From Clostridia bacterium (GTDB lineage Bacteria > Bacillota > Clostridia > Oscillospirales > CAG-272), in assembly GCA_017463125.1 (NCBI GenBank), contig JAFTPV010000003.1:93190-157189 (forward strand): a stretch of 64,000 bases of DNA. The letters run 5' to 3'. The position numbers and the translations under genes are program-made. Below the pieces are notes generated by a model. That model had not been told where the DNA came from. It saw only the letters and a list, made by a program, of their open reading frames with translations, and ran no database searches. Position 1 is the first letter of the stretch, and each line of letters begins with the position of its first letter. Shown one piece after another: positions 3,147 to 19,063 of the stretch.

Positions 3147-3167
3147 TGTTTTGACTATACTAGTTTA

Positions 3168-3207
3168 CAAAAATCGGCAGTTTGAAGCTTCAAACCGCCG
3201 ATTTTTC
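3168..3207. terminator. bidirectional intrinsic terminator shared by the oxidoreductase gene and the cotJ operon
   Basis: About 17-bp near-perfect palindrome aaatcggcagtttgaag/cttcaaaccgccgattt, with T-runs on both strands. Confidence 0.7.
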
Positions 3208-3233
3208 TGTTTTACAGATGCTTGTTTTTTGAT

Positions 3234-3382
3234 TTAATCGCCCTGCAAAATCCTCATAGCTTCGCCGAAGCGCTGGAAGTGAACTACCTCGCGCTGACGG
3301 AGGAATTTTATGGCGTCGTTCACGTCAGGGTCGTCAGAAAGCCTAAGAATAGCGTCGTACATTGCTCTCGCCTTTTGCTCTG
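3234..3382 (-). pseudogene. cotJC: cotJC 3' fragment (manganese-catalase-family spore coat protein, C-terminal 47 codons plus crossover core)
   Basis: Translation gives EQKARAMYDAILRLSDDPDVNDAIKFLRQREVVHFQRFGEAMRILQGD. This matches the conserved CotJC/Mn-catalase C-terminus (B. subtilis ...EEKARATYQWLIDISDDPDLNDSLRFLREREIVH). There is no start codon or N-terminal domain here. Confidence 0.85.
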
Positions 3383-3478
3383 TTACTATCACGTATTCGC
3401 AACAAAATTGAGTCTTGCTAAAGTGCGAAAAATCCTTATATTTCAAGGGCTTTCGGCACTTTTGAAGTTGACGATTTT

Positions 3479-5038
3479 TCAAAAATTCCAGTGAATTTCG
3501 ATAGGTACGTTTCGTGTCCCCGGAATACGCTTTCCGACCATGATTTTGTCGATCAAAATCTCCACCATTTCCCGTGTCAGATGCTCTACCTTGACGTATT
3601 TTTCGATCAATTCTCGGCGGTTGTCACCCACTGCAATTTTGACGTTTATCTCTGCAATTTGCTTTTGACATTCCAGCACCTGTGATTCAAGACGTTCTTT
3701 TTGCGAAGTGAAGTCCTTTGACAGCTCGATGAAATCTGCCTCACAAATCAAGCCCTTCACCTTGTCAAGATAAAGGTCACGTACGCCTTTGGAAAACTGA
3801 TTGATCTTGCCTTGATAGGTGGCGATTTCGGCTTCAATTTCTTGCTTTTGCTCCAAAAGATCAGCGTTAAACTGTACCTTGCGTTCCAACTCATCCATAT
3901 CAAGATATTCGGCATTGAGTCGCCGCAGTTCGTCAATCACCATTCTTTCAAGTCTGTTGACCGAAATAAACGCACCCTCGCAAGCACCCTTAGCGTAGTG
4001 TCGATTGGGGCATTGCAGGAAATGTCTGCCACCCGATTTTGACGAGCGCATGACGTATCCGCAGGACGCGCACCGCACCTTTTTGGCAAAAAGACCAATC
4101 GTACCGACCTTAAACGGCTTGGCTCGCTCGGCGATCATCTTCTGCACTCTGTCCCACAGGGTGCGGTCAATGATCGGCTCGTGAGTGCCTTCCACCCGAA
4201 ACCATTGTTCCTTGGGGCGTGGGCGGTTTATACTCGTTTTATACGAAATACTCTCGTATTTTCCTTGCACGAGATTGCCGATGTAGGTCTCGTTGGTCAG
4301 CATATCCGAAATGGCGAAATACTTCCACAGAGTGCTGTTCTTGCTCGGCGGCAGACTGAAACGAAGCCCCTGCATCCGCTTGTACTCGGTGGGGTTGGGT
4401 ATCCCTCGGTCGTTGAGCATTCGCGCGATCGCCGTCTTGCCGTAGCCTTGTGAAAAGAGGGTAAAGACCTCTCGCACCACGGCGGCGGCTTCCTCGTCGA
4501 TGATCAGATGACCTTTCAGGTCGGGATCCTTCTTGTAGCCGTAGAGCGCAAAGGAGCCGATGTGAAAGCCGTTTTTGCGGCGGCTGTCCAACGCAGATTT
4601 GATGCTATCCGACATATCCTCCAGATACCACTCGTTGACAAGACCGTTGATCTGACGGCTTTTTTTGTTGCCTTTGTTGGCAGTGTCGGCATTGTCCACA
4701 ATGCTGACGAAACGGATACCCCAAATCGGAAACAGACCGTGTATGTACCTCTCCACCAATTCAAGCTCACGGGTAAATCTCGATTGCGTTTTGCAGAGGA
4801 TAATGTCAAATTTTCTCGCCTGCGCATCGGCAAGTAACCGCTTGAACTCGGGACGGTTGCGATCCGAGCCTGCGTAGTCGTCGTCGCTGTAAATGCCGTA
4901 AAGCTCCCACCCCATGCGGTCGGCGTAGTCACGGAGCATCGCCTTTTGATTCTGAATACTGCCCGAATCATCGGTGGCGTTCTGCTTGTTTTTGTCCTCC
5001 TCGGACAGTCTGCAATAGATTGCTACTTTTTCTCTCAT
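3479..5038 (-). CDS. large serine recombinase (SpoIVCA/TndX-like)
   Basis: 519 aa. The N-terminal resolvase catalytic domain is AIYCRLSEED...SIQNQ. It also has a recombinase domain, a Cys-rich zinc ribbon (CASCGY...CPNRH) and a C-terminal coiled coil. It has the same orientation as cotJ. Confidence 0.9.
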   Translation of the reverse strand: MREKVAIYCRLSEEDKNKQNATDDSGSIQNQKAMLRDYADRMGWELYGIYSDDDYAGSDRNRPEFKRLLADAQARKFDIILCKTQSRFTRELELVERYIHGLFPIWGIRFVSIVDNADTANKGNKKSRQINGLVNEWYLEDMSDSIKSALDSRRKNGFHIGSFALYGYKKDPDLKGHLIIDEEAAAVVREVFTLFSQGYGKTAIARMLNDRGIPNPTEYKRMQGLRFSLPPSKNSTLWKYFAISDMLTNETYIGNLVQGKYESISYKTSINRPRPKEQWFRVEGTHEPIIDRTLWDRVQKMIAERAKPFKVGTIGLFAKKVRCASCGYVMRSSKSGGRHFLQCPNRHYAKGACEGAFISVNRLERMVIDELRRLNAEYLDMDELERKVQFNADLLEQKQEIEAEIATYQGKINQFSKGVRDLYLDKVKGLICEADFIELSKDFTSQKERLESQVLECQKQIAEINVKIAVGDNRRELIEKYVKVEHLTREMVEILIDKIMVGKRIPGTRNVPIEIHWNF

Positions 5039-5064
5039 GTTCTTATCTCCTCCACGATAAGAAC
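5039..5064 (-). promoter_or_regulatory. perfect 9-bp hairpin or palindrome abutting the recombinase start codon, with the SD in its loop
   Basis: The mRNA sense strand reads GUUCUUAUC-GUGGAGGA-GAUAAGAAC-AUG. Confidence 0.4.
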
Positions 5065-5108
5065 AAGCTGTTTTCTTGCCTTTATTTTACCATAAAAACG
5101 GCTGTTTT

Positions 5109-5270
5109 TCATTGATTTGGAGAAAAATTTACACTTTTTCTGCGTTCTAACGTTGAGATCAGTTTTAACCATATATTCGTGTAATCCTCCTTCGTCAAAA
5201 TTCCGCTCTTAAAAACACTTGTACAAATTTCGTTTTTCATATCATTTCTTTCGGCTTTTTCTTTTGCCAT
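5109..5270 (-). CDS. small hypothetical protein (53 aa) immediately upstream of the recombinase
   Basis: Hand translation gives MAKEKAERNDMKNEICTSVFKSGILTKEDYTNIWLKLISTLERRKSVNFSPNQ. GGGAGGA lies 7 nt upstream of the ATG. The ORF is below the length cutoff of the ORF track. Confidence 0.45.
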   Translation of the reverse strand: MAKEKAERNDMKNEICTSVFKSGILTKEDYTNIWLKLISTLERRKSVNFSPNQ

Positions 5271-5333
5271 AGCATTCCTCCCTTCGTTTTTGAAATAAAT
5301 ATATGAAAAATAGCAAGTCCGCTATTACAGCGT

Positions 5334-5472
5334 AGCACCCCGCACCGAGCCATTTCCTTTGCTCGCCTTTCGACCAAGTATGTCAGGCGGTACTGTGTAC
5401 GATTTCAGTTATGGGTGCGCTCATATCGTGGCGGCACTGTCCATAACGCCTGTATCACTCTCGGCTGGGGCT
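5334..5472. ncRNA. candidate structured RNA or leader (nested helices), orientation unknown
   Basis: Nested complementary segments: 5334-5349 with 5460-5472, 5384-5389 with 5447-5452, and 5409-5414 with 5441-5446, plus a local hairpin at 5390-5400. It lies in a 330-nt stretch with no convincing ORF. Confidence 0.25.
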
Positions 5473-5560
5473 ATTCAATTGGTGACGGACTTTTTTGTCC
5501 CTTCACCTATGAAATACGCCCGAGATTGCGATTTTCTGCAAAAAAGTTAAAAATTTTTTT

Positions 5561-5616
5561 GAAAAATTTAAAAACGCACCTTGTCGGCGGTAAAAATCCG
5601 CTTTCGGAGTGCGTTT
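5561..5616 (-). terminator. intrinsic terminator downstream of the oxidoreductase gene
   Basis: Stem aaacgcac/gtgcgttt with inner stem gcgg/ccgc, followed on the minus strand by a U-rich tract. Confidence 0.55.
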
Positions 5617-5626
5617 GAGAGTATAT

Positions 5627-6925
5627 TTACATCTTTTTGTCATCGGTTGCGGGGTTGTCGATAAGCTGACCGTCTTCAGTAAAGCGTGAGCCGTGGCAGG
5701 GGCAATCCCAAGTGTGTTCAGCTTTATTGTATTTGAGGGCACAGCCGAGGTGTGGGCATCGGGGTGCAGTGGGGGTAAAAATACCTACCGTCGATTCAAA
5801 AGCGTTGACGGCAAGCTGTGGGCGCAGGACGGTGCGCGATGGATCGAAAACGGCGGCGTAGGGACTGTTTTTGCCTTGCACAAGGTCGCAGAGAATATCG
5901 GCGGCGACCATAGCGTTTGTCATACCCCACTTGTTAAAGCCCGTCGCCACAAACACATCGGACGTGGACTTGGCGTACTGTCCGATATAGGGAACGTCGT
6001 CCAGCGTTATACAGTCCTGCGTTGCCCATTTGCCGACGATCTCGGCGTTTTTGTAGTGCTTGCGAGAAAAATCTTCAAGCTCTTGCCAACAGCCGCCCTC
6101 CTTGCCTGTGCGGTGTCCGCCACCACCGAGGAGCAGAAGGTCGCCGTAGCTTCGGAAGGATAGCCCCGAATCCGATTCGTCTACGTACATACCGCCGACG
6201 TTCTGAGCGTTTTTGAGAGCAATGACATAGGAACGGTGCTGATAGAGCTTTAAGGAATACAATCCGTGCTTGTTGAGCATCGGTAAATGGGTTGCGATAA
6301 TCAACTTTTTGTAGGTGATCTCGTCACGGTTGGTTTTCGCCTTGTTTGGCATTACTTCTGTGACCTTGGTATGCTCGTAGATTGGCAGATCTTTTGTGAT
6401 AGTGTATAGAAATTTCAATGGGTGAAACTGCGCTTGATCTTTGACGCACACTGCACCTGCGACAGAAAACGGAAGCTCTTTTGCATCCGAAAACTCGGCT
6501 TTGACACCGATACGGTTGAGTGCAGCTACTTCTTTTTCAATCTTCTTACGGTCATTGAGAGAATACACGTAGTTATCCCGTGTTTCAAAATCGCAGTCGA
6601 TATTCTCGCAAAATTGCGCGTACTCCTGAATTGCCTTGCTCTGCGCCTCCGCATACAACCGTGCCTTGTCCTCGCCAAAACGGCGAGTCATTTTATCGTA
6701 GATCAAACCGTGCCCCAAAGTGATCTTCGCCGTTGTATTCTTTGTAATGCCTTCACAGATTTCGTCTGCCTCCACGAGCATACAATCCACGCCCGCATTT
6801 TTGAGCTTATAGGCGCATAAAATCCCCGCAATCCCGCCGCCGATGATCAAAACGTCGGTCTTTTTATTCCCACCAAGCGCGTCAAACCGTGGCTTTGACG
6901 ATGTTTTTAACCATATTGAGTCCAT
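5627..6925 (-). CDS. FAD-dependent oxidoreductase with C-terminal Rieske 2Fe-2S domain
   Basis: N-terminal dinucleotide fold DVLIIGGGIAGILCAYKL. The C-terminal Rieske motif is CPHLGC...CPCHGSRF. Confidence 0.75.
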   Translation of the reverse strand: MDSIWLKTSSKPRFDALGGNKKTDVLIIGGGIAGILCAYKLKNAGVDCMLVEADEICEGITKNTTAKITLGHGLIYDKMTRRFGEDKARLYAEAQSKAIQEYAQFCENIDCDFETRDNYVYSLNDRKKIEKEVAALNRIGVKAEFSDAKELPFSVAGAVCVKDQAQFHPLKFLYTITKDLPIYEHTKVTEVMPNKAKTNRDEITYKKLIIATHLPMLNKHGLYSLKLYQHRSYVIALKNAQNVGGMYVDESDSGLSFRSYGDLLLLGGGGHRTGKEGGCWQELEDFSRKHYKNAEIVGKWATQDCITLDDVPYIGQYAKSTSDVFVATGFNKWGMTNAMVAADILCDLVQGKNSPYAAVFDPSRTVLRPQLAVNAFESTVGIFTPTAPRCPHLGCALKYNKAEHTWDCPCHGSRFTEDGQLIDNPATDDKKM

Positions 6926-7000
6926 AATCTATCCTCCGAATCTTAATAGGATTAGTGTTTACACGGAAACGAATAATATGTGTTAATTCGAGAGCTATTA

Positions 7001-7029
7001 TTTACTTTTGCATAGAAATGTGGTATAAT
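7001..7029 (+). promoter_or_regulatory. candidate sigma-A type promoter for the EEP gene
   Basis: TTTACT, 17 nt, then TATAAT preceded by an extended TG (tggTATAAT). Confidence 0.4.
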
Positions 7030-7062
7030 AAAAAATATAAAAACATCAAAGGAAGTCATAAC

Positions 7063-7848
7063 ATGAGAATAGTTAACTGGAATATATCATGGAGCAATAA
7101 AACAGACAATAAAGCCGCTTATTTAAGAAGTTTAATTGAGGGAAAGTCGTTTGTAATTATCTTGCAAGAAGTAAAAATGTTTGCTTATGAGGCATTAAAG
7201 CAGTCCTTGGGAGATATAGCTAATATTGAGTATTCGTTGGACTATCGTATTCCCGGCAAATTTGATATAGATTCAAGAAAACTTGGTGTTGCTATATTAG
7301 TAAGCAAAGACTTGAAGATTACAAATTCACAAGCATTGAGCCGAGCTCTTATGCCGGATAGAACAATAATGGTTGACATAGAGTACAATAATGAACCTTT
7401 GCGAATTTTGGGATTACATTCGGTGACGGGCTGTCACCACTTAAAAGCGAAGGAAATACAGTTTTTCTCCTTTGCAGAGGCAGTGGATGAGTACAAACCC
7501 GATGTTGTAGGTATAGATGCCAATGAGCCTCAGTATGACCATTATGAAATTAGCAAAATGAAATTTTTTGATAATTATAATAAGGGAAATGGATGCAAAA
7601 CATTTTTTGAAACAATGCAAGCCAACGGTATGGCTGATTCATTTGTAAAAGACTATGATATAGAAAAATACATAGAGGGTGAGTACCTTACAACATCTCA
7701 TATAATCAAACGAGGACACAAAAAGGTACGTTACGATTTTTTGTTTGTCAATAATGAGAAAATTCGTAATTACCATTGTTCCTATGACTATGACAATGCA
7801 GTTGAGGCTGGTAGCGACCACGCCGCAGTAATAGTAGATGTGGAATAA
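7063..7848 (+). CDS. endonuclease/exonuclease/phosphatase (EEP) family protein
   Basis: Begins MRIVNWNISW, has LQEV (catalytic Glu context) and GIDANEP, and ends with the SDH motif. The start was moved to the ATG at 7063. The gene is very AT-rich. Confidence 0.6.
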   Translation: MRIVNWNISWSNKTDNKAAYLRSLIEGKSFVIILQEVKMFAYEALKQSLGDIANIEYSLDYRIPGKFDIDSRKLGVAILVSKDLKITNSQALSRALMPDRTIMVDIEYNNEPLRILGLHSVTGCHHLKAKEIQFFSFAEAVDEYKPDVVGIDANEPQYDHYEISKMKFFDNYNKGNGCKTFFETMQANGMADSFVKDYDIEKYIEGEYLTTSHIIKRGHKKVRYDFLFVNNEKIRNYHCSYDYDNAVEAGSDHAAVIVDVE

Positions 7849-8065
7849 TCAATAACAAATAAAGGGGCTGAGCTTCTTGCTTTACTAAAATGCAGTTGAC
7901 TCATCCTTTTTATTTTGAAAAAAGTTTCGGCTAATTTATATAAATTCTTAAAAACAGCCGAAAAATGCTTTTAATTCTTTGCTTTTCGTATTTTTATACC
8001 TTCGACCATATATTCTCATTCGTTTTGGGAAATAATAACGGTGAATACAAAAAACGGAGGTATAT

Positions 8066-8728
8066 ATGTTCAAACACGAAAAAATGTTATTTCATCCCGT
8101 AGAGGTAGAGAGACCCAATCCGCAGTATGCCGTTTTGCTTCAAGAGCAGCTTGGCGGTGGGAACGGCGAGCTCAAGGCGGCAATGCAGTATATGTCGCAG
8201 AGTTTTCGCATCAAGGATCCCGAGATCAAGGATCTTTTCCTCGATATTGCCGCGGAGGAGCTGGGACACATGGAAATGGTGGCGCAGACCATCAATCTGC
8301 TCAACGGTCACGATGTGGATGCAACCAAGGTGCAGGCGGGCGAGGTGCAGACGCACGTTCTGCTTGGTCTCAATCCCGGACTGATCAATTCCTCGGGGTA
8401 TTCTTGGACGGCGGATTACGTTACCGTAACGGGCGACCTGTGCGCCGACTTGCTCTCTAATATCGCGTCCGAGCAGAGAGCCAAGGTGGTTTACGAATAT
8501 CTCTACCGTCAGATCGAGGACAAGAAGGTACGCGAAACTATAGACTTTCTTCTCAACCGCGAGGAAGCGCACAACCAGATGTTCCGTGATGCCTTTAACA
8601 AGGTACAGGAAACAGGCTCGAACCGCGATTTTGGCACGACGAAAGCGGCGAAGATGTATTTCTCTATGTCAAACCCCGGACCGAATACGTTTGCGACAGG
8701 TGAGAGTCACGCACCGTCGTTTAAGTAA
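8066..8728 (+). CDS. manganese catalase family protein (YdbD-like)
   Basis: MFKHEKMLFHPVEV...GGNGELKAAMQYMSQSF...AAEELGHMEMV...ASEQRAKVVYE...LNREEAHNQMF are the di-Mn ligand motifs of the family. GGAGG RBS present. Confidence 0.8.
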   Translation: MFKHEKMLFHPVEVERPNPQYAVLLQEQLGGGNGELKAAMQYMSQSFRIKDPEIKDLFLDIAAEELGHMEMVAQTINLLNGHDVDATKVQAGEVQTHVLLGLNPGLINSSGYSWTADYVTVTGDLCADLLSNIASEQRAKVVYEYLYRQIEDKKVRETIDFLLNREEAHNQMFRDAFNKVQETGSNRDFGTTKAAKMYFSMSNPGPNTFATGESHAPSFK

Positions 8729-8743
8729 CAGTAACGATGATAC

Positions 8744-8790
8744 GGCAGAGGCGGCGGACAAATCTTGTCCGCCGCCTCTGCCGTTTTTTA
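8744..8790 (+). terminator. intrinsic terminator after the Mn catalase gene
   Basis: 19-bp stem cggcagaggcggcggacaa/ttgtccgccgcctctgccg followed by TTTTTT. Confidence 0.85.
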
Positions 8791-8947
8791 CCCCACTTTT
8801 TTAAACTCGGGTAAGAAACCACATGCTGTTTATTCTGAAAGCCTTGTTTTGCAAGGAATTGAAAGCTTTTATGGGTGTCGTAAAAAAATATCGGAAAAAT
8901 GCAAAAAAGCCGATACTGATTTTAGGCTTATTTTTGATTTCCGGACA

Positions 8948-9142
8948 TTTGAGAAAACAGCTTGTCCTTATCGATTTTTTAATAAATTAAGCTAAATTTT
9001 GGTAAAATTAAGTGTTGTTGCTCTTATATGATATCAGGATGGCAATTTTTGAGCGTTTTGCCGAAGTGTGAAAAATCCTTGTATTTCAAGGCTTTTCGGC
9101 GTTTTTTTGATAAAGGTTGCTCTTGCAGTATTGCAGCATCTG
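8948..9142 (+). repeat. internal diverged copy of the element's right arm, ending in the TCTG core
   Basis: Aligns to 17110..17305 in direct orientation. My hand alignment gives about 14 substitutions over about 185 nt. The sequences diverge completely immediately after TCTG (9139..9142). Confidence 0.85.
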
Positions 9143-9262
9143 ACATATCTTCTATGAAGTCGGTACGCTTAAATTGTGGATTGGAATCACAGAAAAACGG
9201 AGGGGATAAACTCGCGTTAATGAGGATAAAATGACAAATAATTAAAAATTACCCTGGATAAC

Positions 9263-9291
9263 TTGACGTTATCTTAAAAACGTGCTATAAT
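9263..9291 (+). promoter_or_regulatory. strong sigma-A type promoter for the ATPase gene
   Basis: TTGACG, 17 nt, then TGcTATAAT (extended -10). Confidence 0.6.
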
Positions 9292-9320
9292 GTTGATGAA
9301 CCAAGAAAGGAGTACCTACG

Positions 9321-10562
9321 ATGAACAAAAAGATTTACACAAGACAGTATTATATTGATAAAATTCGTGGCTTTTATAACAGTGACCTTATTAAAGTAGT
9401 CACAGGTATCCGCCGTTGCGGTAAATCCTGCTTCCTTTTGTCTGTGATGGAAGATCTAAAATCCCAGGGCGTTAAGGAAAAAGACATTTTGTACCTCAAC
9501 CTCGATAAGCGCGGTTATCGTAAGATCAAAACGCCGGACGCACTTGAAGCTGCAGTTGAAACGCTAATTACCGATGACGATTATAAATATCTATTCATTG
9601 ACGAGGTGCAAAACGTAGACGGTTTTGAAGAGGTCATCAACGGATTCAGGGAAGACGGAAACTTTTCCATTTTTATCACCGGCTCCAATTCCTACCTTCT
9701 GAGCGGTGAGCTTACGACAAAGCTGACCGGTCGTTATATTGAAATCGAGATGTTTACCTTGAATTTTCGTGAATATCTTGAAATGAAATCATTTTTCGGC
9801 AATGAGATAAAATCCAATAAGACAGAAGAATTTAACGAGTATATCCGTTTTGGTGGTTTCCCTAAGGTACTTGAGTTTGACGACCCCAATGACAAAGATA
9901 CCTATATTTCGGAGGTTATTTCGCAAATTCTCGAAAAAGATGTTGTAAAGCACAAAAAGATTCGCAACCGTTCGGTATTCGATAAGGTTATGACCTACGT
10001 GATCAATAACTTTGGCGCAACGGTGAGCCTTTCAAGCATTGCGGAATATTTTGAAAAGCAAGAGCATATCAGTATTCGAACCGAGACGCTCAATAATTAT
10101 TTGCAGATTCTTGAAAACGCGAAGATCATATACAGATGTCCGCGCTTCGATGTGAAATCAAAAAAGTCCTTGCGCGGAGAGCAGAAATATTATCTTGCAG
10201 ATCTCGGTATCTATTTCTCTCGCAATGTGGACGCGCGTATCAACTATGGTCCCGTGCTTGAAAATATCGTATATACCTATCTGTCTGCAAAGAATTATAA
10301 GATCAGCGTCGGTCGCATCGGCAAGCTGGAGTGCGATTTTATTACCCGTGTAAGCGACGAGTACAGATATATCCAAGTGGCAATGACGATTATGAGTCCC
10401 GAGACCGAGGAACGCGAATACAAGCCTTTCACTATGATACGGGATAATTACCCCAAATATCTGCTTACCATCGATCCACTGCTCCAAAAGCGTGATGGTG
10501 TGATACACAAAAATATTATTGAGTTCATTGCAAATGATGAAAGCTTGTCATCAGTGGTTTGA
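9321..10562 (+). CDS. AAA-type ATPase with C-terminal DUF4143-like domain
   Basis: Walker A GIRRCGKS and Walker B LFIDEVQ, followed by about 200 aa typical of the ATP-binding protein family AAA_14/DUF4143. Confidence 0.7.
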   Translation: MNKKIYTRQYYIDKIRGFYNSDLIKVVTGIRRCGKSCFLLSVMEDLKSQGVKEKDILYLNLDKRGYRKIKTPDALEAAVETLITDDDYKYLFIDEVQNVDGFEEVINGFREDGNFSIFITGSNSYLLSGELTTKLTGRYIEIEMFTLNFREYLEMKSFFGNEIKSNKTEEFNEYIRFGGFPKVLEFDDPNDKDTYISEVISQILEKDVVKHKKIRNRSVFDKVMTYVINNFGATVSLSSIAEYFEKQEHISIRTETLNNYLQILENAKIIYRCPRFDVKSKKSLRGEQKYYLADLGIYFSRNVDARINYGPVLENIVYTYLSAKNYKISVGRIGKLECDFITRVSDEYRYIQVAMTIMSPETEEREYKPFTMIRDNYPKYLLTIDPLLQKRDGVIHKNIIEFIANDESLSSVV

Positions 10563-10568
10563 TAAAAC

Positions 10569-10682
10569 AAAAAAGACCTCCGAAGAGGTCAATTTTGCAC
10601 ACACTGTGCGATCGGACAATCCGACGATTTGAGAATTCTTTTATTTGAACTCGTAGTGTAATTTATAAGGGATATAAACTAC
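10569..10682 (-). ncRNA. tracrRNA
   Basis: The minus-strand sequence UCCCUUAUAAAUUACACUACGAGUUCAAA pairs with the CRISPR repeat GUUUGAGAGUAGUGUAAUUUUAUAAGGGA, with the usual internal bulge. Three hairpins follow (TCGGA/TCCGA, GCACA/TGUGC, GACCUC-UUCG-GAGGUC) and then UUUUUU. A consensus promoter lies upstream. Confidence 0.8.
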
Positions 10683-10688
10683 ACTTGT

Positions 10689-10717
10689 ATTATAATACAA
10701 AAAGGAGTAATTGTCAA
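10689..10717 (-). promoter_or_regulatory. consensus sigma-A promoter driving the tracrRNA, overlapping the cas9 translation initiation region
   Basis: On the minus strand TTGACA (10717..10712), 17 nt, then TATAAT (10694..10689). The cas9 ATG is at 10719. Confidence 0.65.
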
Positions 10718-10718
10718 T

Positions 10719-13700
10719 ATGAAAAAACAAAATTATTTCATTGGACTTGATATAGGAACTGATTCCGTTGGTTATGCGGTGACAGACGAGGAATATAATT
10801 TGTGCAAATTTAAGGGCGAACCTATGTGGGGAGTGACCCTTTTCGATGAAGCGCAGCTTTCCGTGGAGCGCAGAGGCTTCCGTACAGCTCGTAGGCGTTT
10901 AGATCGCAGACAGCAACGTGTTCAATTGATACAAGAGCTATTTGCACAAGAAATCAACAAGGTTGACAAAGGTTTTTTTATAAGAATAAAGGAAAGCTAT
11001 CTCTATCCCCAAAAAGAGGAGGACAAGATACGTTTATTTGATACGTATGAAATGCAAAAAGAATACTTAACGAAGTATCCGACGATCCATCACCTTATCG
11101 TGGAATTGATGGAAAATGCAGTTCCACACGACGTAAGACTGGTGTATCTTGCCTGTGCCTGGTTGGTAGCTCACAGGGGGCACTTCCTGAGCGAGGTGGA
11201 CAAGCATAATATTGCTGCGGTTACCGATTTCAAAACTGTTTATGAAAAGCTTGTAAGCTATATTACACGTGATGAATATACTTTGCCATGGAAAACAGAT
11301 GTGGATCTCGAAGTAATTCAAAATGCTTTGAAGGCTAAATCAGGAATTCAAAGGAAGTCAAAAGCATTAACGGAAGCATTTTTTGGTACAGTGAAGGCTC
11401 CGAAGATCGTTAATGAGCATTATGAATATAATTATGAATGTATTATTAAATTACTGTGCGGCGGCAAGGTTAATTTAAGTGATTTGTTCGCAAAGGATGA
11501 ATATGCCGAACTTGAAGAAAAGGCTATTGCTTTGAATATGGACGATGAAAAGCTTGTAGCTATTATGCAAAGTATCGGTGACGATGCCGAGCTGATCTCT
11601 GCGTTGAAGGAGATTTACGACTGGTCCGTATTGGTTGACGTATTGAAGGGGCAGGATACCATTTCCAAAGCCAAGGTTGCAGTTTACGAGCAGCACAAGC
11701 GCGATTTGACCACCTTGAAATATTTTGTGAAAAAATATGCACCGAGTAAATATAACGAAATTTTTCGATCTGACAAGACAAATAACAACTACGTAGCCTA
11801 CATAGGAAAGAATCAAACGGGGAATGACAGTCGGAAGGTAAAGAAGGCAGGCAAAAAAGAAGAACTTTGCAAGTATGTTCTTTCTGTCGTTAAAAGCATT
11901 CTTCCGGACGAAAGTGATTTGGAAAAATACAGCGATATGGTCACTCGATTGGAAACGTACGACTTTCTTCCCAAGCAGGTGGACGGGGACAACCGAGTGA
12001 TTCCGTATCAGCTATATTGGTATGAGCTGAACATAATTCTTGAAAATGCCGAGCGTTACATCCCGTTTATTTCCGAAGTTGATGAAGACGGCATTTCGGG
12101 TAAAAATAAAATACTGTCGGTATTTGAATTCAGAGTTCCTTATTACGTAGGACCGCTGAAAGGAAAAAGCAATTGCAGATACAATTATTGGATGGTCAGA
12201 AAAGCAGAGGGAAGGATTTTTCCGTGGAAGTTTAATAGAATGGTCGATCTTGACGAAAGCGAAAATGCCTTTATTGCAAGAATGACAAATTCTTGTACGT
12301 ACCTGCCAGGGGAAGACGTGCTTCCCAAGAACTCGCTTGTCTACTGCTCGTTTGAGGTGCTGAATGAGATAAACAATATCAGAATCAATGGTAACGAAAT
12401 TCCTGTTGTTTTAAAACAAGGAATATACAACGATTTGTTTATGCGAAACAGCAAGGTTACGCCGAAGAAAATTTGCGAATACCTCATTTCCAACAATTAT
12501 ATGTGTGAATCCGATGTCTTGTCTGGAATTGATATCACGGTAAAATCATCACTCAAGCCGTTTTTGCAGTTTAAAAATCTTGTAAACAGGAAGATGCTGA
12601 CCTATACCGATGTTGAGAAAATTATCCACAGAGCCACCTATTCCGAGGATAAAGCAAGATTTAAAAAATGGCTCAGTGAACAGTATTCCGACCTTCCCGA
12701 GAGCGAAATCACTTATATTTCCGGTTTGAAGTTCAAGGATTTTGGAAGGCTATCCCGAAAGCTTTTGTGCGGTATTGAGGGCGTGAATACGCAAACAGGC
12801 GAAGTTTATTCCTCAATCATTCGCGCTATGTGGGAAACCAATTATAACCTGATGCAACTTTTATCCGACAACTTTAATTTCGAGAAAAGCATAGACGAAA
12901 TCGTTAGAGAATATTATGATGTAAATCCCAAAAGCATTTCGGATAGGCTTGACGAAATGTACGTTTCCAATGCAGTCAAACGTCCTATTATCCGTACTCT
13001 TGATATTTTAAAGGATGTTGTTAAGGTGCAAGGATGCGCGCCCGAAAGAATCTTTATTGAAATGGCGCGCGGTACAAGTGAGGGGCAAAAAGGCAAGCGA
13101 ACGGTTACACGTCTCAAACAGATTCAGGAACTGTACGAAAAAGTCAAAGATGAGGATGTTCGTGAACTGCAAAGCGTTCTTGATGAATGGGGTGATGCGG
13201 CACATAATAAGCTGCAAAGCGATAAGATTTTCCTGTATTTTATTCAGCTTGGTAAGTGCTTGTATACCGAAAAAAGCATTGATTTGGAATCGGTTATTTC
13301 CGGCGACGGTACCTATAATATTGAACACATATATCCCCGTAGCTTTGTAAAAGACGATAGCATTATCAACAACAAGATTCTCGTCGATTCAAAAGTGAAC
13401 GGAGATAAGAGCGACAAGTATCCGATTGATCCTGATATTCAGGAAAAAATGCGTGGATATTGGATTCGCTTGAATAAGATTGGCTTGATCAGTGATGAAA
13501 AATTCAAACGCCTGATAAGAACGACAGGCTTTACAGAAGAAGAAAGATTTGAATTTATCAACCGTCAGCTTGTTGAAACAAGACAATCAACCAAAGCCGT
13601 GACGGCATTGTTGAAAGAACTGTATCCCAATACGGAAATCGTTTACGTAAAGGCGGGGCTGGTTTCGGAATTCAGACAGACGTTCGATATTTTGAAATCC

Positions 13701-14807
13701 AGAGCAGTGAACGATCTTCATCACGCAAAGGATGCGTATTTGAATATCGTTGTTGGTAACGTATGGCATTCCAAATTCAGCAGACCGTTTTGGAATGCAG
13801 ATAAAAATTACAGTATCAGACCTGAAATTGTGTTTACTCGCTCCGTTATATGCGGTGGCAAAACGGTTTGGAACGGCGGTTCCGATAAAGATCGCGTAAT
13901 CAAGATTGCAAGAAAAAACACAGCGCATATGACGAAATATTCCTTCTGCCGCAAGGGGGGATTCTTTGACCAGATGCCAATTTCGGCATCAAAAGGATTG
14001 ATTCCTCGCAAGAAGGATATGCCTACGGAAATTTACGGTGGATATAACAAGTCAACTGCTTCCTTCTTTGCTTTGGTAAGATATAAGGTTGCGAAAAAGC
14101 AGGATATTATGGTAATGCCCGTAGAACTGTTATATGCAGATCATTTTCTTGGTAACGGTACGTTTGCCGAGGAATATGCAAGAAAGACCATCGGAGAGAT
14201 TATCAATAAGGAAGTGGTTGAAGTGGAATTTCTTTTGAACAAGCGTATTCTGAAGGTTAATACAATGCTATCCTTGAACGGATTGAGGGTATGCATAACA
14301 GGAAAGGCGAGCGGCGGAAAGGTTATCGGAGTTTCTGTTATGGATTCTTTCAAAACGTCTGCCGATAACGAGGTGTATATTAAAAAGCTGGAATCCTTCA
14401 AAAATAAGAAAAAGAAGAATTCCGGTATCGTTTACAATGAATTGCACGATGGCATCAATAAAAACAAAAATCTTGAAATATATGACTGCTATATCGAAAA
14501 GCTACAGCAAGCACCGTATAGTTACCGTCCCGCTAATCCTGCCAATACGCTACTAACAGGCAGGGAAAAATTCATTACTTTAACTTGTGAAAATCAAGTG
14601 GACGTATTATTGGACGTTTTAGGTTTGTTTGGTAGAATACAAAGTGCGGATCTGACTCCAATTGGTGGAGTTGCAAAAGCAGGCGTCGCAACACTGTCAT
14701 CAATGCTTTCCAACTGGAAAAAGAATTATACCGACATTCGTATAATTGACCAATCAGCCTCGGGACTTTTTGAAACGGTTTCCGATAATCTTTTGGAATT
14801 GTTATGA
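10719..14807 (+). CDS. cas9: type II CRISPR endonuclease Cas9 (1362 aa)
   Basis: RuvC-I IGLDIGTDSVGYAV, an Arg-rich bridge helix RRGFRTARRRLDRRQQR, an HNH region YNIEHIYPRS...NKILVDSKVNGDKSD, and RuvC-III HHAKDAYLN. Confidence 0.95.
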   Translation: MKKQNYFIGLDIGTDSVGYAVTDEEYNLCKFKGEPMWGVTLFDEAQLSVERRGFRTARRRLDRRQQRVQLIQELFAQEINKVDKGFFIRIKESYLYPQKEEDKIRLFDTYEMQKEYLTKYPTIHHLIVELMENAVPHDVRLVYLACAWLVAHRGHFLSEVDKHNIAAVTDFKTVYEKLVSYITRDEYTLPWKTDVDLEVIQNALKAKSGIQRKSKALTEAFFGTVKAPKIVNEHYEYNYECIIKLLCGGKVNLSDLFAKDEYAELEEKAIALNMDDEKLVAIMQSIGDDAELISALKEIYDWSVLVDVLKGQDTISKAKVAVYEQHKRDLTTLKYFVKKYAPSKYNEIFRSDKTNNNYVAYIGKNQTGNDSRKVKKAGKKEELCKYVLSVVKSILPDESDLEKYSDMVTRLETYDFLPKQVDGDNRVIPYQLYWYELNIILENAERYIPFISEVDEDGISGKNKILSVFEFRVPYYVGPLKGKSNCRYNYWMVRKAEGRIFPWKFNRMVDLDESENAFIARMTNSCTYLPGEDVLPKNSLVYCSFEVLNEINNIRINGNEIPVVLKQGIYNDLFMRNSKVTPKKICEYLISNNYMCESDVLSGIDITVKSSLKPFLQFKNLVNRKMLTYTDVEKIIHRATYSEDKARFKKWLSEQYSDLPESEITYISGLKFKDFGRLSRKLLCGIEGVNTQTGEVYSSIIRAMWETNYNLMQLLSDNFNFEKSIDEIVREYYDVNPKSISDRLDEMYVSNAVKRPIIRTLDILKDVVKVQGCAPERIFIEMARGTSEGQKGKRTVTRLKQIQELYEKVKDEDVRELQSVLDEWGDAAHNKLQSDKIFLYFIQLGKCLYTEKSIDLESVISGDGTYNIEHIYPRSFVKDDSIINNKILVDSKVNGDKSDKYPIDPDIQEKMRGYWIRLNKIGLISDEKFKRLIRTTGFTEEERFEFINRQLVETRQSTKAVTALLKELYPNTEIVYVKAGLVSEFRQTFDILKSRAVNDLHHAKDAYLNIVVGNVWHSKFSRPFWNADKNYSIRPEIVFTRSVICGGKTVWNGGSDKDRVIKIARKNTAHMTKYSFCRKGGFFDQMPISASKGLIPRKKDMPTEIYGGYNKSTASFFALVRYKVAKKQDIMVMPVELLYADHFLGNGTFAEEYARKTIGEIINKEVVEVEFLLNKRILKVNTMLSLNGLRVCITGKASGGKVIGVSVMDSFKTSADNEVYIKKLESFKNKKKKNSGIVYNELHDGINKNKNLEIYDCYIEKLQQAPYSYRPANPANTLLTGREKFITLTCENQVDVLLDVLGLFGRIQSADLTPIGGVAKAGVATLSSMLSNWKKNYTDIRIIDQSASGLFETVSDNLLELL

Positions 14808-15673
14808 GCTGGAGGACGATCGTTATAACGTCACGCTGCAAGCTGGATTATAAGATGGGCTTTATGGTGGTGCGCGCCGAGGAAACAAAAAAGATTTTTT
14901 TGGATGAGATTGCCGTATTGCTCATCGAGAATCCTGCCGTATCACTGACCGGTTGTTTGTTGGAGGTCTTAACAGAAAAGAAGATACGGGTGATTTTTTG
15001 TGATGCAAAGCGAAATCCCAACGCCGAGCTTGTGCCATATTTCAATTCTTATGATTGCTCCCGCAAAATCAAGGTTCAAATTGCTTGGTCAGATGATTTG
15101 AAGGGAGCAGTCTGGGCGGATATCGTTGCGGAGAAAATACGAAAGCAAGCGGATTTTCTTGAAGAACTTGAAAAAATTAATGAAGCGGGTCTTTTACGCT
15201 CCTATTTATATCAAATAGAACCTCACGATATCACGAATCGAGAGGGACACGCCGCAAAGGTTTATTTCAACGCGCTTTTTGGAATGGATTTTACAAGAAG
15301 TGAGGAGAATATCACTAACGCCGCACTGAATTATGGGTACAGCATTATTTTGTCGGCATTCAATCGTGAGATCGTAGCTCACGGGTATCTGACGCAGCTT
15401 GGGATTTTTCACGATAATATGTTCAATCATTTTAATCTGAGCTGTGATTTGATGGAGCCGTTTCGTATTTTGGTTGATCGTAAGGTGAAGGAAATGAATT
15501 TTACCGATTTTACAAGCGAGGAAAAACATATACTTGTAAACGTTCTGAATAAAACCGTTATGATCAATCAAACCAAGCAAACGGTGTTAAATGCAGTTAA
15601 ATATTATACCAGAAGCGTTTTCGACGCATTAAACGAGGGCGATCTTTCGCTTATACAATTTTATTCATTATGA
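14804..15673 (+). CDS. cas1: CRISPR-associated endonuclease Cas1 (type II)
   Basis: Motifs NREGHAAKVYF, NAALNYGYSI and FHDN...CDLMEPFR. The start overlaps the cas9 stop (ATGA). Confidence 0.95.
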   Translation: MSWRTIVITSRCKLDYKMGFMVVRAEETKKIFLDEIAVLLIENPAVSLTGCLLEVLTEKKIRVIFCDAKRNPNAELVPYFNSYDCSRKIKVQIAWSDDLKGAVWADIVAEKIRKQADFLEELEKINEAGLLRSYLYQIEPHDITNREGHAAKVYFNALFGMDFTRSEENITNAALNYGYSIILSAFNREIVAHGYLTQLGIFHDNMFNHFNLSCDLMEPFRILVDRKVKEMNFTDFTSEEKHILVNVLNKTVMINQTKQTVLNAVKYYTRSVFDALNEGDLSLIQFYSL

Positions 15674-15990
15674 GTTACAGATTTATAAGAATGTTGGTAT
15701 TTTTTGATCTTCCCACCGAAACGCTTGAAAACAAGCGCGAGTATAGAAAATTTCACAAACTACTCATTAAGAACGGCTTTTTGATGATGCAGGAATCCGT
15801 GTATTGCCGTATGCTGATTACGCCAAGTGCGGGTAAGGCGGTTTTGGACGTGATACGCAAAAACCGCCCCGCAGACGGCATTGTGCAAGTTATGACCGTG
15901 ACTGAAAAGCAATTTGCTGGGATGGAATATATTACGGGAGAGCATCACAGCGAGGTGATAGAAAGTGACGAGAGGTTGATTATATTATGA
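15670..15990 (+). CDS. cas2: CRISPR-associated endoribonuclease Cas2
   Basis: 106 aa. Begins MLVFFDLPTE and contains QESVY. It overlaps the cas1 stop and the csn2 start by 4 nt each. Confidence 0.9.
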   Translation: MSYRFIRMLVFFDLPTETLENKREYRKFHKLLIKNGFLMMQESVYCRMLITPSAGKAVLDVIRKNRPADGIVQVMTVTEKQFAGMEYITGEHHSEVIESDERLIIL

Positions 15991-16652
15991 AACTGATATA
16001 TAAGAATATGGGGCATGTTTTGCGTTTTGATAAAGGATATATCAATGAGCTCGTTGTTGAAAACAGAAAAATGTTTCTTGACCTCGTAAGCACTATGATA
16101 CGTCAGGCAGAGGGCGAACACGGAGACTGTATATTATCAATAGCGGAAAAACCGGTGGAGTTTAGCAAATGTGCGGACGTTACCGTACAGTTTGCGCCGT
16201 TTCAGCTCAATCGCAAAAGCTTACTGACAAAGCTTTGCTCCGCATTAGAGCAAAGGGCTCTGCTTGCGGAAAATTACGTAAAAACAGGAGAATTGGTTAG
16301 TGAAATAGAGCGATATATTCTGTATCTTGCCGAGGATCTTCCGTTTGAAATCGATTGTCAAAAGCTTACGATAGGCCCAATTATCAAGGCAGTATCACCT
16401 GAGATCGAGGAAGCCGATAAGGGTACATTGGAGAAAATATTTGCATATATGGAGCTTGTGCGTGAGTTGGATCGTGATCGCTTGTTTATTATGATCAATA
16501 TGAGAACGTATTTTTCGGATGAAGAAATGGAACGATTTGCGGAAAGTGTCTGCTTACATGATTTCAAGGTTCTTTTGCTGGAAAGCTCATCTCTTTCAAA
16601 ATTAAAACACTCAAAAAGATATACGGTGGATGTTGACTTGTGCGAATTTTGA
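15987..16652 (+). CDS. csn2: Csn2 (type II-A signature adaptation protein)
   Basis: 221 aa, in the canonical position after cas2 and directly before the leader and array. The size and acidic, helical character fit short Csn2. No motif-level proof without a search. Confidence 0.7.
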   Translation: MKLIYKNMGHVLRFDKGYINELVVENRKMFLDLVSTMIRQAEGEHGDCILSIAEKPVEFSKCADVTVQFAPFQLNRKSLLTKLCSALEQRALLAENYVKTGELVSEIERYILYLAEDLPFEIDCQKLTIGPIIKAVSPEIEEADKGTLEKIFAYMELVRELDRDRLFIMINMRTYFSDEEMERFAESVCLHDFKVLLLESSSLSKLKHSKRYTVDVDLCEF

Positions 16653-16653
16653 C

Positions 16654-16682
16654 TTGATTTTTCTTGTTAATTGTGATATAAT
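16654..16682 (+). promoter_or_regulatory. pre-crRNA promoter in the CRISPR leader
   Basis: TTGATT, 17 nt, then TGaTATAAT (extended -10), about 70 nt upstream of repeat 1. Confidence 0.6.
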
Positions 16683-16750
16683 ATAAGCTACCACTCCCTG
16701 TACATTGCTCTCTGCAATTCGTAGTATTGTTGCTCAAATGTTGATTTGAG

Positions 16751-17050
16751 GTTTGAGAGTAGTGTAATTTTATAAGGGACTCAAACCAGAAGAAAGTGAG
16801 TTACAATCACCAAAAGGTTTGAGAGTAGTGTAATTTTATAAGGGACTCAAACTTTTGCGTTAAAATCTTCAACGCTACCACCGTTTGAGAGTAGTGTAAT
16901 TTTATAAGGGACTCAAACTCTTAGCATAACGAAAAGAAAGAACAGTATGTTTGAGAGTAGTGTAATTTTATAAGGGACTCAAACTTTTTTGCGCCTTGCT
17001 ATTATTGCACCATCGTTTGAGAGTAGTGTAATTTTATAAGGGACTACATT
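16751..17050 (+). CRISPR. CRISPR array with 5 repeats and 4 spacers
   Basis: The 36-nt repeat GTTTGAGAGTAGTGTAATTTTATAAGGGACTCAAAC occurs at 16751, 16817, 16883, 16949 and 17015. The last copy is degenerate at its 3' end (..GGGACTACATT). Spacers are exactly 30 nt. The leader ends in ATTTGAG. Confidence 0.97.
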
Positions 17051-17073
17051 TTCTTGACAATTCCAAAATAAAA

Positions 17074-17106
17074 AACGATGCACCGTACTTTGGGGCATCG
17101 TTTTTC
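17074..17106 (+). terminator. intrinsic terminator after the CRISPR array
   Basis: Stem acgatgc/gcatcgt followed by TTTTT. Confidence 0.6.
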
Positions 17107-17109
17107 TAT

Positions 17110-17305
17110 ATTTGGAGAAACAGCTTGTCCTTATCGATTTTTTAATAAATTAAGCTAAATTTTGGTAAAATTACGTGTTGTTGCTCTTATATGATAGCAG
17201 GGTGGCGATTTTTGAGCGTTTTGCCGAAGTGCGAAAAATCCTTGTATTTCAAGGGGTTTCGGCGATTTTTCAATAAAGGTTGCATTTGCGTTATTGCAGC
17301 ATCTG
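17110..17305 (+). repeat. right arm of the element (attachment-site arm) ending in the TCTG core at the cotJC junction
   Basis: Direct-repeat partner of 8948..9142. It contains GGTTGC 18 nt from the core, mirrored by GCAAC 16 nt from the core in the left arm. Confidence 0.85.
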
Positions 17306-17708
17306 CCGCGAGGTCCTCGTGAATATCGGCAAGGGGATCACCTTTGGAGGCTATTGCCATAGCGTCAAAGGGCACGCCTGCCGCCGAGCAGGGATAGATA
17401 CCTACGCCGTGATCAACGTAGTATTTATCAAAGCCCGCTGCTTTTATTTCATCATGGGTAAGGTTTCTGGTAAGCTGATGGACGATAGAGGCCACGATCT
17501 CCATGTGCCCAAGCTCCTCACTGCCTACGTCCGTTAATATACCTATCACTCTGCCATCGGGCATATTATATCTTTGGTTGAGGTAACGGGTAGCCGCAGC
17601 GAGCTCGCCGTCAGGTCCTCCAAGTGCTGTGATTATCATACCTGCAAGCTTGGGGTTGGGGGTTTCTATCTTTACAGGATATTGCAATTTTTTCTCGTAT
17701 ATCCACAT
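17302..17708 (-). pseudogene. cotJC: cotJC 5' fragment (N-terminal 135 codons of the manganese-catalase-family spore coat protein)
   Basis: MWIYEKKLQYPVKIETPNPKLAGMIITALGGPDGELAAATRYLNQRY...SEELGHMEIV...DIHEDLAA is near-identical in pattern to B. subtilis and C. difficile CotJC. After the junction the frame reads element DNA for 38 codons, to a stop at 17187. Confidence 0.85.
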
Positions 17709-17709
17709 A

Positions 17710-18009
17710 TTAGTTCATTCCTCCCTGACGATTATTCGGTGCGCCGTTACCCATCTGCCAAGGCCAAGGCTCGTTTACCCAACTCCAGCCCTTAGTCGTA
17801 TCGGTGCCTATTGCGGTGAGGGGCCCGGTCGTGCCCTCGTACTCCTCGACAAGATCCTTTAGCTCTTCTACGGTTTTATAATAGTAGTCAAGAGCCGCGC
17901 AGCAGTCGGGGTGAGTGTCAAGATAAAGCTCAAGCTCGGTTTTCACAAAGCTCAAGGCGCGGATTTTTTCAAGTAAGGGAGTATCTGCTCCCATCATTCG
18001 ATTATTCAT
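17710..18009 (-). CDS. cotJB: spore coat protein CotJB
   Basis: Contains LLEKIRALSFVKTELELYLDTHPD and the C-terminal PWPWQ motif. The ATG overlaps the cotJA stop (ATGAATAA). Confidence 0.85.
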   Translation of the reverse strand: MNNRMMGADTPLLEKIRALSFVKTELELYLDTHPDCCAALDYYYKTVEELKDLVEEYEGTTGPLTAIGTDTTKGWSWVNEPWPWQMGNGAPNNRQGGMN

Positions 18010-18322
18010 TACCGTAGACCTCCATCGGCTTGTATAACTGCTCGAAAAGTGTGCCGTGAGCAAGGGCGTCAGGAGCCGAATACAGCATACAGAATTTTTG
18101 ACTGGGTGCGTATAGGTACGCGGGTTTGAAATTATCTACGCAGCTTCCGCCGCCACAACCGCAGCCACCCTCGGTGACTCCGCCAACGGTGCCGCCATTT
18201 CCGTTACTGTTACCGTTACCGCCGGGAGTCACAGGAGCACTGTTGTTAAAGGTGGGGGCAAAGCCCGCAGCAGCCATCTGTGCGCATCTATCGGTCGGAT
18301 AACCGTTTTCATTCTTTCTCAT
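18002..18322 (-). CDS. cotJA: spore coat-associated protein CotJA
   Basis: The C-terminal pattern YLYAPSQKFCMLYSAPDALAHGTLFEQLYKP matches the CotJA family. It is first in the operon. The start was chosen at MRKNENG (18322). Confidence 0.7.
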   Translation of the reverse strand: MRKNENGYPTDRCAQMAAAGFAPTFNNSAPVTPGGNGNSNGNGGTVGGVTEGGCGCGGGSCVDNFKPAYLYAPSQKFCMLYSAPDALAHGTLFEQLYKPMEVYGNE

Positions 18323-18437
18323 TTGTTCTGTCCTTTTGTTTTTTGTGGTGCTATACGCCACTACAACCATTATATGCCTAACTCATAAAGCTGTGAATAT
18401 TTTTCGACAATATGCAACTGTAACGGCAAAAAAGCAC

Positions 18438-18466
18438 TTGACTAAAACTTATGTATGTCGTATAAT
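18438..18466 (+). promoter_or_regulatory. sigma-A type promoter for the DUF4416-like gene
   Basis: TTGACT, 17 nt, then TATAAT. Confidence 0.6.
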
Positions 18467-18493
18467 AAATACATAATTTTTTCGGAGGTTACT

Positions 18494-19063
18494 ATGGGAG
18501 CTGTTTACGATTTTGAAGAGGAGAAGCTGATAGTCGGCGTTATTTACAGTGACAAGGAGCTACTCGATAGAGCCTTAGATATGCTGGTTAAGGATTTCGG
18601 AGAGTGGGACGCGGTATCCGAGGAGTTTTCTTTTTCTGCCGAATTTTCCGACTACTACGACGAGGAGCTTGGCGGTGAAGGGCTAAGACGTATTTACAGC
18701 TTCAAGAAAACGGTTGATCCCTCAAGACAGGCAGAGATAAAGGAGAGGACAAACGAGATAGAAATAACACTGTCCGTTGACGGCAAGCGGCACGTAAACC
18801 TCGACCCCGGATTTATCAATCACGGAAGGCTGCTTCTTGCTACAACGAAAAAGGCGGGCTTTAGAATACCGCTCGAGCGCGGCATATACACCGAGATGAC
18901 TCTCTATTACGCACGAGGAGGGTGGCACAAGCTCCCCTGGACATACAGAGATTATCAATCCGAGAGAGTTCAGAAATTCATCACCAAGGTAAGACACGAT
19001 TATCTTCTCGAGAGGCGTAAAAAAGAGAAGGAAAAATGTGAATTATTAAAGAAAAAAGTCTAG
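18494..19063 (+). CDS. DUF4416-like hypothetical protein
   Basis: ORF trimmed to MGAVYDF after a GGAGG RBS. The pattern NLDPGFI...LLLATTK...RIPL is what I recall for DUF4416. This is a weak call. Confidence 0.45.
   Translation: MGAVYDFEEEKLIVGVIYSDKELLDRALDMLVKDFGEWDAVSEEFSFSAEFSDYYDEELGGEGLRRIYSFKKTVDPSRQAEIKERTNEIEITLSVDGKRHVNLDPGFINHGRLLLATTKKAGFRIPLERGIYTEMTLYYARGGWHKLPWTYRDYQSERVQKFITKVRHDYLLERRKKEKEKCELLKKKV

Follow-up and report, generated by a model that had tools for sequence, protein, structure and literature searches.

How a sporulation gene came to be split by an insert that holds an internal copy of its own right end is the question raised by cotJC in a Clostridia bacterium (contig JAFTPV010000003.1, forward strand, positions 93,190 to 157,189; this whole stretch of 64,000 nt is called the window, and its own numbering is used here). 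The insert is one composite gene-intervening element of the skin, SPbeta and gin kind, with one large serine recombinase. It was probably formed by the fusion of two simpler elements, the internal repeat being a dead (fossil) right junction and the composite moving as a unit. Sporulation gene-intervening elements with a large serine recombinase have been described in sigK (skin), spsM (SPbeta) and gerE (gin) (PMC5595907, PMC4191935, PMC5025042). For cotJC, the literature search returned only one passing mention of a skin-like element, in Laceyella sacchari (bioRxiv 10.1101/2022.02.25.481979).

The junctions, arms and recombinase of the element are as follows.

3234..3382, minus strand: cotJC 3' fragment (B side), including the left core 3379-3382; the called 70-aa product matches PF05067 (Mn_catalase) and the joined open reading frame (ORF) is intact
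3383..3478, unstranded: left arm P', in which TTACTATCACGTATTCGCAAC is the recombinase half-site proximal to the core; a hairpin/terminator of 52 nt lies at 3412-3463 (match to positions 35-90 of the arm profile)
3479..5038, minus strand: large serine recombinase of 519 aa (Resolvase, Recombinase, Zn_ribbon_recom and DUF4368 domains; PHROG 95 integrase, E=9e-100)
8947..9142, unstranded: internal arm copy P1, including the internal core 9139-9142 (repeat; arm profile E=6e-59; present in the related loci L177 and L181)
9143..9215, minus strand: X, the putative decayed right target half of module 1; its best match is the core-adjacent end of the cotJC 5' fragment, with one GCA unit missing
17110..17305, unstranded: terminal right arm P2, including the right core 17302-17305, the presumed working right junction (repeat, arm profile)
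17302..17708, minus strand: cotJC 5' fragment (B' side; PF05067), with cotJB (17710-18009) and cotJA (18002-18370) upstream (PF12652, PF11007)

Comparison of the window with itself, together with a direct count, revealed a direct, ungapped repeat of 196 nt (8947-9142 and 17110-17305) with 17 mismatches (91.3% identity), the longest identical run being 56 nt (8955-9010). The original prediction, which began the repeat at 8948, had found nearly the same extent but had put the divergence too low, at about 14 substitutions over about 185 nt. It had also stated that the similarity takes in the TCTG core and then stops abruptly, and this was confirmed: the core closes both copies (9139-9142 and 17302-17305), and outside the repeat the matches are at chance level (12/40 on the left side and 7/40 beyond the core on the right). 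The left core is one more TCTG, at 3379-3382, and 96 nt separate it from the recombinase gene. A third, partial arm copy of 52 nt just inside the left end (3412-3463), not mentioned in the original prediction, has 83-87% identity and consists of a hairpin followed by a T run. The three cores delimit modules of 5760 and 8163 bp within an insert of 13923 bp, sizes which came out unchanged when recomputed. Joining minus-strand positions 17708..17302 to 3378..3234 in silico, across the insert that the two cotJC fragments flank, gave an unbroken Mn-catalase/CotJC ORF of 183 aa, in agreement with the earlier proposal that removal of the whole element restores cotJC.

A genome scan with the recombinase yielded 562 confirmed relatives, of which 80 loci were kept (L001-L080). 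Nearly all of the 80 adjoin a cotJC fragment cut at the same codon, and the insertion point is identical in dozens of genomes. At 20 loci the recombinase is 92-98% identical, against no more than 55-90% for the host CotJC proteins, which shows that the element moves horizontally. The arm beside the cotJC 5' fragment is conserved over ~190 nt across elements of different cargo. An arm profile found full arms in L001-L080 only beside the cotJC 5' fragment, with no other internal arms among these loci.

Both modules of the window were found elsewhere as complete cotJC elements. An element of ~5.7 kb (L017) has the order cotJC5'-arm-Mn catalase-DAO-recombinase-P'-cotJC3', and L012, L013 and L008 are similar; the cargo of module 1 (5627..8728) recurs in the single elements L017, L012, L013 and L016. 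In three other single elements (L014, L184 and L188) the block of CRISPR repeats and cas9 genes lies between one arm and a recombinase region of the element's own, 94-97% identical; where the window has the ATPase gene, these elements have other defence genes (AbiH and GmrSD). Homology to the CRISPR block begins at window positions 10552-10557 in L014 and L184 and also in a chromosomal locus, L178. The idea that two related elements were fused thus gains support from relatives carrying one module at cotJC, which are common.

To the right of the internal core there is neither a P' arm nor a recombinase gene, and the junction reads P-core-X. The stretch 9143-17305 is a module without a recombinase, bounded by P1-core and P2-core, that is, by attachment-type repeats. 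From 9143 to about 9192 the sequence resembles the cotJC side of the right junction with 3 nt lost. On the minus strand X reads ..CDSNPQFKRTDFIEDM-SD (..TDFIEDM-SD), and the cotJC 5' fragments of other hosts end in ..KGDPITDLHEDMAAD (..TDLHEDMAAD); some of the changes are synonymous, and X lacks one GCA unit. When X was compared with 27 B' half-sites, its best local score was 13, compared with 8.75+/-1.31 for shuffled sequences, 2/300 of which reached 13. A B' profile match at 9165-9144 on the minus strand lies directly against the core; its whole-window nhmmer E value is 4, and the chance of it at that one position was estimated by us at ~1e-4. An alternative identity for X, the remnant of a P' arm, was rejected, as comparison with 56 P' arms gave no signal (0.46 of shuffles reached the score). 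A repeat which ends exactly at the crossover point was made by the recombinase, and X is therefore read as the target half of an old right junction, most likely derived from another cotJC. The register of this half has been lost: in place, X agrees with 4/18 defined positions of the B' consensus, and only after a shift of 3 nt with ~13/21, so that no B' half-site in the correct register is present at the internal site. Half-site register matters for binding by large serine recombinases, and the internal site is therefore probably crippled.

Two further composites were recovered from other hosts. The first (L177), found through a 91% identical Cas9, has the order cotJC3'-P'-recombinase (97%)-53-aa ORF-other cargo-Mn catalase remnant-P1-TCTG-X-ATPase (94%)-tracr-cas9-csn2'-array-P2-TCTG-cotJC5'; cas1 and cas2 have been lost and both outer junctions are present. 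Window positions 8931-14816 are collinear with L177 8220-14098 at 89.1% nucleotide identity, and P1 of L177 ends at an internal core near 8431. Its host is a different one, with 70.6% protein identity in the 3' part of CotJC, 68% DNA identity in the flanking gene, and other neighbours. The second (L181/L183), in yet another host, has both arms, the internal one at 8200-8398 of L181, and matches window 8732-17045 collinearly, at 77.8% identity. In L177 X differs by 1-nt indels; most of it has been replaced in L181, where just ~20 nt can still be recognised. Since collinear composites occur in three hosts, the fusion predates their split and the outer junctions were used for transfer; the composite has a single origin and moves between hosts as a unit.

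Contigs at least 98.7% identical to the window (most of them 99.5-100%), from about seven near-clonal samples, all carry the full composite with identical spacers; no partial (single-module) form was found in these samples, which are few and clonal and so weak as evidence. The original prediction would have been undermined if only full-length forms existed in the population and in every relative. That is the picture within the near-clonal population, and not across relatives.

Neighbour-joining pairs the two arms of one element, P1 with P2, and not the arms of like position. Informative sites, sorted as concerted, orthologous or cross patterns, numbered 6, 0 and 0 for the window and L177, 11, 4 and 1 for the window and L181, and 10, 2 and 0 for L177 and L181. 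A junction of single origin whose arms pair by element implies that the arms exchange sequence (gene conversion), and their 9% divergence is therefore no measure of age. The earlier argument that the copies are too diverged for a recent duplication is right in that they are no recent duplication, and wrong in using the divergence as a clock. The exchange also lends some weight to the suggestion that homologous recombination between the arms loops out the CRISPR module, as a crossover would delete exactly 8163 bp; no such product was seen, and loss of the ATPase and CRISPR block by this route is rated as possible.

The internal arm might instead be kept for a function, as a terminator or insulator, a promoter, or a regulator-binding module for neighbouring genes, which we consider doubtful. 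The whole 190-nt arm is conserved across cargo types, far beyond the ~25 nt that a serine recombinase half-site needs, and it contains a hairpin with a T run (a proposed bidirectional terminator), an extended -10-like, promoter-like element (TGGTAAAAT) and a box common to the recombinase leader across the family. Between composites P1 is ~89-90% identical, like the flanking coding DNA, and X is not. Gene conversion from a functional outer arm would, however, explain this conservation without any function of the inner one. An Rfam scan of 3000-18500 (E<=1) gave nothing for the arms and only a chance CsrC match on the terminator, and the ATPase gene has its own promoter, which travels with it elsewhere. 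A protein-coding reading of the arm was rejected on both strands: the plus-strand ORF (9028-9234) is broken in L177 (ATG TGA), which also speaks against a function of this kind, and the minus-strand one is only the tail of truncated CotJC. A more specific version, rather unlikely in our estimation, is that the ~190-nt arm is a control module coupling recombinase expression or excision to mother-cell expression, the internal copy being selected as a second working control or recombination site through which the element can shed or keep its defence module. The only candidate features found for control of excision in the mother cell were a conserved 53-aa ORF without a family match and the conserved leader box; excision junctions were not seen.

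The original prediction had proposed two related elements fused or accreted in tandem, the second having lost its recombinase, with possible excision of either 5.8 or 13.9 kb. Tandem accretion in the strict sense would mean site-specific integration of the second element beside the first and a live internal site. The repeat does end exactly at the core, the internal site has an intact P-side half in agreement with the consensus of the family, and tandem arrays do form in the family. The true tandem, L002 (1866-2004), joins two cotJC elements whose recombinases are 97% and 55% identical to that of the window, and its internal junction is attP-like, P'-CAGA-P, the P' of one element being joined to the P of the next. 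Among the fetched loci, viral-contig scans included, the outer circle junction was found only there. A P' arm and a recombinase gene would likewise be expected to the right of the core in the window, but the junction there is no hybrid of two element arms. The half-site shifted by 3 nt, the indels in X between composites, the lack of partial forms in the population and the composite standing whole in three hosts all make tandem accretion quite unlikely, and on the same grounds, population forms apart, the 5.8-kb module is unlikely to excise by itself.

Duplication of the right arm in place, by unequal crossing-over or slippage, followed by divergence of the copies with the CRISPR block as ordinary cargo between them, would account for the two arms of each composite being each other's closest relatives. 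Such a duplication would not have its limit exactly at the crossover core, followed by a target-like half-site, and both halves exist as complete separate elements. The orthologous patterns that survive between composites (4 and 2 sites) fit one old junction with gene conversion, and in-place duplication is very improbable. A chimeric contig joined at the repeated arm, suggested by metagenome contigs whose ends fall within or close to the arms (the last position of L164 is 9083, the first of L162 is 9093, and L169 and L170 end in P2), has next to no chance of being the explanation, as independent contigs (L165, L161, L167 and L168, all at least 99.9% identical) span the internal junction and the diverged L177 and L181 keep the same order.

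Several points weigh against a fusion with a fossil junction. The likeness of X to B' rests on ~20-45 nt and is modest without the positional argument (2/300 shuffles, E=4), and X of L177 gave no signal against the B' sites, probably through being too decayed. The inactivity of the internal site is read from sequence alone. Serine recombinases can use imperfect sites. The L181 composite was recovered without its left end, rare partial forms would be missed in a population sample as small and near-clonal as this one, and no excision junction, whether a restored cotJC or a circle, was seen for any form.

If a fusion is accepted, an element with recombinase, oxidoreductase and Mn-catalase genes would have been joined to a related element with a recombinase and CRISPR-Cas9. 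The first would have kept its right junction, consisting of arm P1, the core and a few dozen bases of its cotJC, and the join would lie to the right of this, at ~9193-9215, beside the ATPase cassette, made by non-site-specific recombination and not by the recombinase. Two routes fit the data. Module-1 DNA with its right junction and flanking cotJC may have recombined with a resident element of the CRISPR type, which would take both a crossover by homology within the recombinase region that the two share and an illegitimate join at ~9193-9215. Alternatively, a CRISPR-type element may have contained a cotJC-like site into which a module-1 element integrated; homologous recombination would then have deleted the duplicated recombinase region. 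At present the left junction (3379-3382) and the outer right junction (17302-17305) would most likely be the only pair that the recombinase brings together. This would remove 13,923 bp and restore cotJC, presumably in the mother cell during sporulation, and would also be how the whole composite moves between hosts. Gene conversion would hold the internal arm ~90% like the outer one, whose homology to it could occasionally delete the 8.2-kb ATPase and CRISPR block.

Upstream of the recombinase gene two further features were identified.

5039..5112, minus strand: recombinase promoter and leader, with an extended -10 (TGGTAAAAT), a conserved box AGAAAACAGCTTGTTCTTATCG (5055-5076) and a hairpin over the ribosome-binding site (RBS) and AUG
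5109..5270, minus strand: 53-aa ORF conserved across the family (called in L164, L172 and L177; conserved in leader alignments)

The hairpin which hides the RBS and AUG is supported by compensatory changes in L016, L018, L011 and L015. The leader carries a strong extended -10 promoter for the recombinase and the conserved box AACAGCTTGTTC. Inverted, the leader box ends every P arm (8952-8973 and 17115-17136 in the window); on the recombinase-sense strand it then reads GATAAGGACAAGCTG. This box agrees with the Bacillus subtilis SpoIIID consensus, WWRRACAR-Y. Pairing of an arm RNA with the recombinase leader, which would free the RBS, was considered and rated weak. The arm box is complementary to the leader at 21/22 nt, and perfect co-variation was seen only in L015 (17/17); in L017 and L013 the leader is changed and the arm is not, which counts against pairing. 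A protein-binding box is more likely. The 53-aa ORF had no Pfam, PHROG or PADLOC match and is a candidate recombination directionality factor.

Elements with the second type of P' arm show TTGCAG-CA-[TC]-TG-CTGCAA, an imperfect inverted repeat about a central dinucleotide, as for attP; this makes TC, with which TCTG begins, the probable crossover dinucleotide. In type-1 elements both arms have GCAAC ~23 nt from the TC centre. The core-proximal P' sequence comes in two unrelated forms, TTACTATCACGTATTCGCAAC and CTGCAACCTCAAAAGCACAAGC, which go with 94-97% identical recombinases (L010, L012 and L014 compared with window 3383-3410); this is odd if one and the same protein reads both.

The cargo of the two modules was assigned as follows.

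5627-6925, minus strand: DAO/Rieske oxidoreductase, module 1 (domain match)
6955-7848, plus strand: Exo_endo_phos protein, module 1 (weak domain match)
8066-8728, plus strand: element-borne Mn catalase of 220 aa, module 1 (domain match)
8742..8784, plus strand: terminator with a perfect 20-bp stem, 3' of the Mn catalase gene (inverted repeat; collinearity with L181 begins just upstream, at 8732)
9216..10562, plus strand: AAA_14/DUF4143 ATPase cassette (gene 9321-10562), with its own promoter at 9263-9291 (PADLOC PDC-S01, E=6.6e-143)
10563..10718, minus strand: region of the trans-activating CRISPR RNA (tracrRNA), with a perfect promoter (10717-10689), anti-repeat and terminator (10590-10575)
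10719..16652, plus strand: cas9, cas1, cas2 and csn2 of type II-A (domain matches)
16751..17054, plus strand: CRISPR array with four 30-nt spacers between five 36-nt repeats, of which the last is degenerate

The 220-aa Mn catalase gene adjoins the arm, on the opposite strand, and its product is ~33% identical to the interrupted CotJC; the gene is also present in L008, L010, L012, L013, L016 and L017. The ATPase is a candidate single-gene defence system, PDC-S01. Its cassette (9216-10542) stands alone in unrelated contexts in L081-L088, and close ATPase relatives (86-93%) in metagenomes lie in unrelated contexts without arms; the gene was rejected as an anchor for finding composites there. The type II-A set is complete, with cas9, cas1, cas2, csn2, a tracrRNA anti-repeat and a repeat array. 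All four spacers (16787-17014) are identical in the contigs which span the whole array (L161, L167 and L168); they had no match in the fetched loci, and the 3' 20 nt of three of the four had none in IMG/VR. Related CRISPR-Cas9 loci (L178/L179 and L180; Cas9 83-88% identical) occur in the ordinary chromosome without arms or cotJC. The last ~65 nt of the ATPase gene are retained in L180, from which it follows that the CRISPR block moves between element and chromosome.

Serine-recombinase elements in cotJC are very common in gut Clostridia. The cargo of the family is mostly anti-phage defence, namely type II-A CRISPR-Cas9, AbiH, GmrSD, a methylase with a ResIII helicase, Methylase_S and the PDC-S01 ATPase. 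Near codon 62, cotJC has a further hot spot for insertion (L177 15385-17254; L065 2014-4014); in L177 it holds a prophage-like element with a 505-aa recombinase, and cotJC is in three pieces there from two elements.

Like skin, SPbeta and gin, the window element splits a mother-cell-expressed sporulation gene whose ORF would be restored by precise joining at a short core, and like gin it is small and not phage-like. The likeness is drawn from sequence, excision during sporulation being presumed. Unlike all three, it lies in cotJC of gut Clostridia, carries a complete type II-A CRISPR-Cas9 system and a PDC-S01 ATPase, and contains a putative internal fossil junction. The sigK skin element of Clostridioides difficile carries an orphan type I-B CRISPR array (PMC4556805) and is thus alike in having CRISPR material on a sporulation gene-intervening element; in the window there is a full cas9-cas1-cas2-csn2 set with tracrRNA and array, in cotJC.

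A further comparison is with the composite staphylococcal cassette chromosome (SCC) islands of staphylococci, e.g. SCCmec-ACME, with CcrAB large serine recombinases (PMC7029739, PMC3026799). These also combine two modules at one target gene with a serine recombinase in one module only, and have directly repeated sites at both ends and at the internal boundary, and the whole composite can move. In SCC composites the internal repeat is a working integration site, and the modules excise separately at measurable rates. The window element differs in its degenerate internal target half, and no partial forms were seen in the roughly seven near-clonal samples. In streptococci, integrative elements and cis-mobilizable elements (CIMEs) accrete in tandem, as reviewed (PMC5704250, PMC7563491). 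There too a module without a recombinase lies beside a complete element, with a repeated attachment sequence, and rides on its neighbour's recombinase. The streptococcal systems use tyrosine integrases, and their internal attachment site is made directly by site-specific integration. In the window, by contrast, the arm-core-target remnant points to a join that was not site-specific, and the family's own tandem (L002) looks different.

The locus shows how small gene-intervening elements may grow: two competitors for one target gene were probably fused, with the fossil junction as the record, and the fused composite then spread as a unit to several gut Clostridia. Two cautions follow. In annotation, an internal repeat may end at a crossover core and yet not be usable as a site; in dating, gene conversion distorts the divergence of repeats inside mobile elements. 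The defence-carrying cotJC family may matter more than the fusion itself. If the arm is a control module, its internal copy would let the element shed or keep the defence module. Should excision of cotJC elements take place in the mother cell, as with skin and SPbeta, the chromosome of that cell would lose the defence genes, and the spore lineage would keep them.

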